Positions 4,681 to 4,916 of a stretch of DNA of 64,000 bases are shown here, one piece after another. Position 1 is the stretch's first letter; each line of letters opens with the position of its first letter. The notes under the pieces are model-generated. The model did no database searches. It saw only the letters and a list, made by a program, of their open reading frames with translations, and was not told the DNA's origin. The DNA comes from Solirubrobacteraceae bacterium. Its GTDB lineage: Bacteria > Actinomycetota > Thermoleophilia > Solirubrobacterales > Solirubrobacteraceae. The position numbers and the translations under genes are program-made. The stretch covers positions 128,872 through 192,871 of the forward strand of contig DATCDV010000004.1 in assembly GCA_036510495.1 (NCBI GenBank). The letters run 5' to 3'.

Positions 4681-4771
4681 GGCGGGTGTTGCGTCGCGGT
4701 CGACGTGAACGATTGTCAATCGGGAATTCGGGTAGCTCCCGGATGGAGTTCGACTCTCCCGCCCGCCGCCA
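4681..4771 (+). tRNA. Non-canonical tRNA-Sec-like (8/4, allo-tRNA-type) gene with GTC anticodon and encoded CCA
   Basis: Acceptor GGCGGGTG/CGCCCGCC (8 bp); D stem GCGTCG/CGACGT (6 bp) with CGGT loop; anticodon loop TTGTCAA; 6-bp variable arm; T stem GGAG/CTCC (4 bp) with TTCGACT loop; discriminator G then CCA. The anticodon stem has only 3 WC pairs. Confidence 0.8.
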
Positions 4772-4777
4772 ACAAAG

Positions 4778-4916
4778 CTGCTGGACCCGGTCTTGACAGA
4801 GTTTGCAATTGTCACGCGCTCGCGGGATAGCTACCCGTCTTGTGTCAGGCCGGGTTCGCAGGTTCCCTGGTATTCTGTGTGACATTGACAATCGTTCGGA
4901 GGTAGCTCCTCCACAC
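4778..4916 (+). ncRNA. Structured RNA continuing 3' of the tRNA-like element (two further hairpin-pair modules)
   Basis: About 19-bp stem 4778-4798/4843-4861 enclosing two hairpins; second unit 4877-4916; 4884-4897 is the exact reverse complement of 4707-4720; three TAGCT-loop hairpins. Confidence 0.6.

Follow-up and report, generated by a model that had tools for sequence, protein, structure and literature searches.

A tRNASec-shaped RNA and a predicted small anti-tRNA co-evolve at a conserved locus of Thermoleophilia

A 64,000-nucleotide (nt) stretch of the genome of a Solirubrobacteraceae bacterium (assembly GCA_036510495.1, contig DATCDV010000004.1, positions 128,872 to 192,871), referred to here as the window, contains a 322-nt gap between a MurT-GatD gene pair (2504-3898 and 3889-4638) and a small MazG-like gene (4960-5286). 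This gap probably holds two co-oriented, co-evolving RNA genes, the first for a tRNA-like RNA and the second for a small RNA that would serve as its cognate anti-tRNA, masking and refolding a possibly missense tRNA. Sequence comparison establishes a family with a fixed layout, covariation of two mutually exclusive pairings, a conserved internal -10 box and an asymmetric pattern of gene loss. Both RNAs are predicted to accumulate and to bind each other, and the tRNA-like RNA, when free, may be harmful or cause missense translation.

Members of the family were collected with an exact-pattern scan for the T-arm word in one genome per prokaryotic species. The scan returned 109 stretches, nearly all from Solirubrobacterales, Conexibacter or Thermoleophilaceae, with the cultured C. 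arvalis, C. stalactiti and Conexibacter strain CPCC 205762 among the carriers. Acceptor pairing is intact in 98 of them, and 81 distinct loci were aligned. In all, the family numbers over 80 distinct loci and is spread across soil Thermoleophilia, where nearly all of these loci lie. When 60 relatives were searched with BLAST, seven further genomes of the genus proved to have full-length homologues, and partial matches covered the tRNA part alone or the 3' end alone. Several subfamilies are recognizable: the window type lies between gatD and mazG, another follows groEL, and further types occur in Conexibacter. A single genome can carry two or three copies. All subfamilies share a common order of promoter, tRNA-like RNA, long-stem three-way junction, spacer, complementary segment, hairpin, C-rich linker and terminator.

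The tRNA-like domain proposed in an earlier note on this DNA is called by ARAGORN at 4681-4771 with anticodon GTC. Its acceptor stem of 8 base pairs (bp) and T stem of 4 bp, closed by a UUCGACU loop, form a 12-bp branch with an 8/4 split, although a 9/4 reading through C(-1):G73 is possible. A GG-containing loop of 4 nt caps the 6-bp D stem, and a long variable arm (CGGG-UAGCU-CCCG), the discriminator G73 and an encoded CCA end are further features. The anticodon stem consists of just three Watson-Crick pairs flanked by A-G mismatches, and its loop, UUGUCAA, presents the anticodon GUC. The best Rfam match is tRNA-Sec (RF01852), with which the RNA shares the 6-bp D stem and 4-nt loop, the long variable arm, G73 and an extended acceptor stem. 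The score of 41.7 bits (E 4e-07) falls below the cut-off of 47, which none of 13 other loci of the family reaches. Unlike tRNA-Sec, the acceptor branch has 12 bp rather than 13, the anticodon stem has 3 bp rather than 6, and a UCA anticodon occurs in none of the 81 loci. The canonical tRNA model RF00005 gives no match at 4681-4771 even at an E limit of 10, whereas the true tRNA-Arg at 52919 scores 72.2 bits. The earlier note had known of no matching RNA family for this real structured RNA locus, in agreement with Rfam, where no family reaches its gathering threshold in this region. Relaxing the limit to E up to 10 adds only the sub-threshold tRNA-Sec hit and a chance Pxr match (E 4.5), and the 13 other loci show no match at the tRNA-like/small-RNA pair. 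By shape, then, the tRNA-like RNA is tRNASec-like and resembles the 8/4 allo-tRNAs.

This shape is maintained throughout the family. In the aligned loci the eight acceptor pairs are 99.6% paired and include a covariation of C3-G70 to U-A; position 3:70 is C-G or U-A and never G-U. The T stem (four pairs) is paired in 100% of cases, the D stem (six pairs, with a loop of 3-5 nt) in 98.5% and the variable arm (five pairs) in 99.4%, whereas the anticodon hairpin, 99% paired, has all three of its pairs altered on both sides. The T-loop and the GG of the D-loop are conserved, as are G73 (81/81), GCCA (75/81) and, in the anticodon loop, Y32 (78/81), U33 (73/81), G34 (79/81) and A37 (79/81). Despite the invariant G73, the anticodon drifts among G34-N-Y triplets and would specify Ile, Asp, Val, Gly, Leu, Ala or Thr depending on the locus, with counts of 32 for GAU, 23 for GUC, 17 for GAC, 4 for GCC, 2 each for GAG and CGC, and 1 for GGU. 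Established tRNA identity rules allow identity to be independent of the anticodon, as it is for serine, and the combination of an invariant G73 with a wandering anticodon points to an identity of this kind. The tRNA-like RNA would be charged by such rules, most likely with serine. Its conserved tRNA structure makes a coding role for the tRNA-like RNA less likely.

The tRNA-like gene appears to have its own promoter. Among 94 distinct upstream regions, a TANNNT box ends 8-10 nt upstream of G1 in 84 (at exactly 10 nt in 61), A(-2) is present in 78 and C(-1) in 83, and transcription is predicted to start 2-4 nt before G1. A CCGTC(G/C)C word recurs about 20-30 nt upstream of the -10 box across paralogous subfamilies (for example, at 4640-4664 of the window) and may be the mark of a shared regulator or sigma factor.

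The second gene is tied to the first by complementarity. A repeat search of the window returned a perfect 14-nt inverted repeat, as the earlier note had stated, in which 4884-4897 is 100% complementary to 4707-4720; by our own arithmetic, about 2e-4 such repeats would be expected by chance in 322 nt. The downstream segment, hereafter the seed, complements positions 27-40 of the tRNA-like RNA. These start with the junction nucleotide and take in the 5' half of the anticodon stem, the entire loop with the anticodon, and the first base of the 3' strand. In a first alignment the anticodon was GUC, GAU or GAC depending on the species and the downstream segment read GAC, AUC or GUC to match, with stem changes compensated as well, sometimes by G-U pairs. 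Conservation of this anti-anticodon had been set beforehand as a refutation test, and anticodon changes among GUC, GAU, GAC and GCC are indeed matched by the downstream segment.

Quantitative comparisons point in the same direction. When given 34 syntenic loci, RNAalifold picks the long-range helix between the seed and the anticodon arm unaided. In these loci its 14 pairs are 97.7% paired and 10 are altered on both sides, a count reached in 0 of 500 shuffles, and slid partners pair at 21-47%. Across the 81 loci of all subfamilies, 17 pairs are standard in 87% of cases versus at most 74% under row permutation. Seed and anticodon arm form a duplex of -29.7 kcal/mol when both come from one locus and of -21.3 kcal/mol when the partners belong to different loci. 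Judged by these comparative data, the complementarity between seed and anticodon arm is far beyond chance. About 25 cells of the seed pairing are G-U, which on the opposite strand would be A-C mismatches, and the constraint therefore acts on the plus-strand RNA. Moreover, the same nucleotides take part in two mutually exclusive pairings, the cloverleaf arm and the seed helix, and both covary. Selection on two exclusive pairings is the mark of a switch or an antisense interaction.

A second contact probably involves the C-rich linker of the small RNA, which pairs with the 5' acceptor strand GGGUGU (4684-4689) in the minimum free energy (MFE) folds of both the dimer and the read-through RNA. Across loci GGGUGU:ACACCC changes to GGGUGA:UCACCC, with U9:A replaced by A9:U, to GGGUGC:GCACCC (L078), to GGGCGU:ACGCUC (L114) and to AGGUGA:UCACCU; within type 1 loci this helix is 91% paired, with two pairs altered on both sides. 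RNAcofold predicts a dimer 12.8 kcal/mol more stable than the two monomers, folded into a four-way junction, and the read-through RNA has this masked junction as its own predicted MFE fold.

The segment downstream of the internal junction had been taken in the earlier note for module 3 of a single modular RNA, a third copy of a two-hairpin unit. No stem forms around TTGACAA, which instead lies in the unpaired 5' seed of a putative small RNA in its own right. Upstream of the seed, a TANNNT box is present in all 81 loci and ends 8-13 nt before the seed anchor column in 79; in the remaining two it ends 18 and 20 nt upstream. The chance rate of TANNNT in random 20-nt windows of the same sequences is 5.6%. 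A TGN precedes the box in 60 of the loci, and the G of this motif is present in every one. The small RNA is predicted to start at about 4883, right at the complementary segment, and to span about 70 nt laid out as seed, hairpin, C-rich linker and terminator. The hairpin, which resembles the variable arm of the tRNA-like RNA, is 97.7-100% paired and switches between GC and AU pairs across subfamilies. The terminator has an 11-bp stem, a UCCG loop and a UUGUUUC tail. A covariance model of the small RNA (R1) finds a single copy in the window (4880-4956, 74.9 bits) and matches downstream of most of the tRNA-like loci examined.

In L027 an insertion sequence (IS) element of about 1.6 kb splits the pair, and the small RNA remains intact and is still found by the R1 model. 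L092 (5296-5468) and L147 (1432-1589) carry the small-RNA gene in tandem, every copy with its -10 box; the seeds within these tandems differ, and just one matches the adjoining tRNA-like gene. The -10 box in every aligned locus, the stand-alone occurrence and the tandem copies argue that module 3 is a separate small-RNA gene with a promoter recognizable in its sequence, and not the 3' domain of one modular RNA. With its inferred promoter, its terminator and a complementarity to its partner that is kept by covariation, the small RNA has in these respects the attributes of an antisense RNA in a pair of the type I toxin-antitoxin kind.

Between the two genes lies module 2, a conserved three-way junction according to predicted folds and homologue pairing. 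A stem of about 20 bp (4778-4798/4843-4861) encloses hairpin 1, whose loop at 4806-4814 is CAATTGTCA (as RNA, CAAUUGUCAC), and hairpin 2, CGGG-AUAGCUA-CCCG. The long stem described in the earlier note thus reappears in the predicted fold of the window, and the first 30 and last 40 nt of the module form at least 10 pairs in 79 of the 81 homologues, with a median of 19. The module can be aligned across all subfamilies, lacks a U tract and is matched weakly by the R1 model (17.7 bits at 4804-4850). It may act as a processing stem, an insulator or a U-less terminator. The loop of hairpin 1 carries an anticodon-loop-like motif in all subfamilies (AAUUGUCAC, CACGAUCAU, AAGGAUCAGU) and may be a second recognition site. 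The elements listed in the earlier note all lie where it had placed them: TTGTCAA (4713-4719), CGGG-TAGCT-CCCG (4729-4741), CAATTGTCA (4806-4814), CGGG-ATAGCTA-CCCG (4823-4837), TTGACAA (4885-4891) and GGAGG-TAGCT-CCTCC (4898-4912). The repeat search also found a direct repeat, GGTAGCTCC, at 4731 and 4901. The features of the locus are collected in Table 1.

Table 1. Predicted features of the RNA locus and the adjoining gene, in window coordinates.
Feature	Position	Strand	Basis
-10 box TACAAT of tRNA-like gene	4665-4670	+	sequence prediction
tRNA-like RNA, 91 nt	4681-4771	+	ARAGORN, anticodon GTC
Module 2, three-way junction	4776-4866	+	predicted folds, homologue pairing
Internal extended -10 box TGG TATTCT of small-RNA gene	4868-4876	+	conserved TANNNT
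Small-RNA seed AUUGACAAUCGUUC	4884-4897	+	100% complementary to 4707-4720; covariation
Small-RNA hairpin (M3) GGAGG-UAGCU-CCUCC	4898-4912	+	paired, covarying
C-rich linker ACACCCAC of small RNA	4913-4920	+	predicted folds, partial covariation
Intrinsic terminator of small RNA	4921-4952	+	repeat arms 4921-4931/4936-4946; within R1 model match
MazG-like gene (context only, outside the RNA pair)	4960-5286	+	Pfam PF03819, E 3.9e-12

The two genes are lost unequally. Only L124 and L127 are Thermoleophilia tRNA-like genes without a downstream complement or a model match, and the acceptor ends of both are damaged; no intact tRNA-like gene without a small RNA was seen among the Thermoleophilia loci examined. 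From the side of the small RNA, a metagenome scan with the hairpin-linker word gave 34 matches, two of them unrelated, and was complemented by an nhmmer search and by reading of the sequences. An upstream tRNA-like gene accompanies 14 of these small RNAs and is missing from about 18. The latter include many independent deletions, all of which remove the tRNA-like gene and keep the small RNA, whether by promoter-promoter fusion, by joining the gatD stop to the internal promoter or by leaving half of module 2 behind. Such one-sided losses indicate that the tRNA-like gene is dispensable, yet it is not seen intact without its partner. The asymmetry is consistent with the logic of an antidote, and it could also stem from a second role of the small-RNA unit, beside which mazG always begins in this subfamily.

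The tRNA-like gene also appears to be used as an integration target, like true tRNA genes. Mobile DNA lies directly after its CCA end in L027 (about 1.6 kb, 4310-5830), a junction at the same point is found in L127, and L097 carries a hairpin insert resembling a miniature inverted-repeat transposable element within the D arm. A mobile-element origin of the locus itself was rejected, as searches of 72,556 plasmids and 50,697 phages returned no match. The locus on a Gemmatimonadaceae-binned contig (L025, DASTSX010000216.1) is near-identical to that of Conexibacter arvalis (L053, L098), and its assignment is probably a binning error. The low-GC unclassified bacterium represented by L031 (JBDRST010000073.1) has an 8/4 tRNA-like gene with anticodon GAU and an ordinary terminator, lacks a complementary small RNA and may have an allo-tRNA of another phylum.

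Together, these features suggest how the pair could work, with every step beyond sequence comparison being inference. The single-stranded 5' end of the small RNA would nucleate on the preformed anticodon loop and zip through the weak 3-bp anticodon stem towards the D arm, so that its first 14-20 nt or so pair with the anticodon loop and the 5' anticodon-stem strand and hide the anticodon. The C-rich linker would pair with the 5' acceptor strand GGGUG, opening the acceptor stem in the full complex, where the linker helix, D arm, seed helix and small-RNA hairpin would meet in a four-way junction. In this manner the small RNA would keep the tRNA-like RNA from decoding, either in trans or in cis on read-through transcripts. 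Left unmasked, the tRNA-like RNA might misread common C-ending codons or might take no part in decoding; a masking RNA dedicated to it would be understandable either way.

A more specific version of this mechanism can be offered tentatively as an all-RNA module resembling a toxin-antitoxin system. The toxin would be a serine-accepting tRNA (G73, long variable arm) acting on the common codons AUC, GAC, GUC and GGC and causing proteome-wide missense, and the antitoxin would be the anti-tRNA that unfolds the anticodon arm and acceptor stem. Decay or repression of the small RNA would release the tRNA and lead to regulated mistranslation or growth arrest.

Several observations weigh against the pairing of a tRNA with its antidote. 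The loci are chromosomal, syntenic and vertically inherited, unlike typical mobile toxin-antitoxin modules. Apparently intact small RNAs are present in genomes with no BLAST-detected tRNA-like gene (G029, G009, G027, G022, G003, G023). The linker-acceptor pairing is moderately supported and is absent in the GGUGGGUAU and Conexibacter subfamilies. Finally, both start sites and both RNA species are predictions from sequence. The persistence of small RNAs without a tRNA-like gene suggests a second role for the small RNA or for its promoter and terminator, such as driving or insulating the downstream mazG.

The strongest competing explanation, which we regard as rather unlikely, is a single cis-acting transcript that runs from the first promoter to the terminator. 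Its 3' domain would mask the anticodon and the acceptor strand until the RNA is processed, by RNase III in the module 2 stem or by 3' trimming, and the internal -10 box would be secondary. The masked four-way junction is the MFE fold of the read-through RNA, the lack of a U tract in module 2 makes read-through plausible, and a stem of about 20 bp would suit RNase III. This explanation does not sit easily with an internal TANNNT box, preceded by the extended -10 G, in all 81 loci, with stand-alone and tandem small RNAs that carry -10 boxes of their own, or with the IS-split pair in which the small RNA is still intact. The two possibilities are compatible and not mutually exclusive. The earlier note had proposed a masking switch within one transcript, similar to a one-transcript toxin/antitoxin. 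Its toxin/antitoxin-like masking fits the data, whereas a single modular RNA is not supported, since module 3 is a separate gene; masking in cis may still occur on a read-through transcript, whose predicted MFE fold is the masked form.

The relationship between the small RNA and mazG bears on a further alternative. In the window subfamily, mazG always begins right after the small-RNA terminator, also where the tRNA-like gene has been deleted. The start codon, ATG or GTG, lies about 8-20 nt past the terminator (window 4946-4962; L133, L146, L155 and others) and about 8 nt past the terminator tail in the window. Even changes in the tRNA-like gene and the upstream gene leave the small RNA in place beside mazG. 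Given the scant promoter space ahead of it, mazG may depend on read-through of the small-RNA terminator for its expression.

The small RNA could accordingly be the main actor and the tRNA-like RNA its decoy or sponge, with the small RNA serving as a leader or promoter element of mazG in type 1 loci or as a regulator of mRNAs through its C-rich sequence. Actinobacterial small RNAs with C-rich seeds are known, such as 6C RNA, and the single-stranded linker resembles them. In about half of the metagenomic type 1 loci the small RNA occurs without a tRNA-like gene and always directly upstream of mazG, whose start leaves little room for a promoter. We nevertheless consider this possibility improbable. 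Neither the subfamilies downstream of groEL nor the Conexibacter-type loci have mazG after the small RNA, and a fast-evolving seed that tracks only its own tRNA-like partner, together with a linker that covaries with the acceptor strand, would be unexpected in a regulator of conserved mRNA targets. Inspection of the predicted folds also revealed no antiterminator alternative. A role of the small RNA as a mazG attenuator was rejected, as no alternative pairing that would break the terminator was found and other subfamilies lack mazG.

Two remaining explanations have very little standing. The earlier note had also considered that kissing between self-complementary AGCU loops holds the RNA together as a folded scaffold or an oligomer. 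Three AGCU-containing loops are present in the window, but the palindromes are not conserved, as homologues show UCGCU, UCACU, UGGCC, CUCACUA and other loops. When the variable-arm loop is compared with the small-RNA hairpin loop, their longest stretch of complementarity averages 3.16 nt within a locus, barely more than the 2.84 nt between different loci. A locus-specific covariation of the three GGG-UAGC-CCC hairpins was examined and rejected, because their likeness is family-wide and not specific to the locus. In favour of kissing loops, these two loops show 5-7 nt of complementarity, such as GGUAGUG/CACUACC, in a Conexibacter-type subgroup (L035, L055, L083, L048, L096, L110) and in L012. 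This hints at a loop-loop contact in these loci, without a counterpart elsewhere in the family. Decaying tandem tRNA duplicates, or protein-binding palindromes in DNA without an RNA function, might be suggested by the likeness of the three hairpins, which could have arisen by duplication, and by the resemblance of TTGACA and TTGTCA to promoter or operator words, but this is barely credible given compensatory changes in more than 80 loci, G-U pairs valid only in plus-strand RNA, the conserved T-loop, D-loop GG, U33 and A37, and a fold z-score of -5.13 on the plus strand versus -3.76 on the minus strand, the G-U pairs and weaker minus-strand fold ruling out a DNA-level or minus-strand reading.

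The preferred reading of a tRNA-like RNA with a cognate anti-tRNA invites comparison with several known systems. Allo-tRNAs with 8/4 or 9/3 branches arose as near-misses of a tRNASec model (Mukai, Soll and co-workers, Nucleic Acids Research 2017; PMC5389517). Their acceptor branch has 12 bp, a tetraloop closes the long D stem, the variable arm is long, the discriminator is G73 or U73, and the diverse anticodons do not fit the predicted serine identity (PMC5389517). The reported sources comprise Clostridia, Proteobacteria and Acidobacteria, with none in Thermoleophilia, and the RNAs were proposed to act as missense suppressors and/or regulatory RNAs, with links to toxin-antitoxin loci noted; no downstream antisense RNA or complementary segment is described for them in that report (PMC5389517). 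The tRNA-like RNA has the hallmarks of the 8/4 type, namely the 8 + 4 bp branch, long variable arm, long D stem and G73. It differs from allo-tRNAs in having only three Watson-Crick pairs in its anticodon stem and in its chromosomal, syntenic setting without adjoining protein toxin-antitoxin genes.

As in type I toxin-antitoxin and other antisense pairs, such as hok/sok and Ibs/Sib, a terminator-ended small antisense RNA lies beside its target, the recognition sequences diverge fast and co-evolve so that paralogues in the same genome are kept separate, and the gene for the antidote can occur by itself, but no intact target is seen unaccompanied by it. Unlike the hok/sok type, the target is a tRNA-like RNA instead of a toxic-peptide mRNA, and both genes lie on one strand without overlapping, their complementarity being encoded in trans. 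T-box riboswitches offer a second parallel, in that an RNA presents a codon to an anticodon (GAC versus GUC in the window) and makes a second contact at the acceptor end. In contrast to the T-box, which contacts an intact tRNA through 3 nt, the pairing here covers 14-20 nt and reaches into the anticodon stem. The locus lacks a Stem I, a T-box sequence and an antiterminator, and the Rfam T-box family (RF00230) gives no match at E up to 10; the partner, moreover, is a dedicated tRNA-like RNA encoded next door. The locus also recalls the two-piece (permuted) transfer-messenger RNA (tmRNA), with a tRNA-like domain whose CCA end is internal to the gene and which is possibly paired to a second RNA piece by a long helix in place of the anticodon arm. 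It departs from tmRNA in that ARAGORN calls no tmRNA in the window, position 3:70 in the window is C3-G70 and not G3-U70, and the second piece has an inferred promoter of its own.

Elsewhere in the window, routine RNAs include a SAM riboswitch on the minus strand (58131-58222, RF00162, 64.7 bits) and a tRNA-Arg (CCG) on the plus strand (52919-52991).

Control of tRNAs normally operates through their synthesis, modification, charging or cleavage, and a search of the literature found no natural small RNA dedicated to base-pairing with a tRNA anticodon arm. ARAGORN labels members of the family as Asp, Ile or Val tRNAs, and with the family invisible to Rfam, Thermoleophilia annotations probably miscount tRNAs. 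If the proposed pairing is correct, it would constitute a new decoding gate, a built-in antidote for a missense tRNA, and would extend the world of allo-tRNAs to Actinomycetota. For genetic-code engineering it would be of interest as a naturally occurring, orthogonal RNA-RNA recognition pair that evolves fast, and it would offer a direct test of whether soil bacteria regulate deliberate mistranslation.

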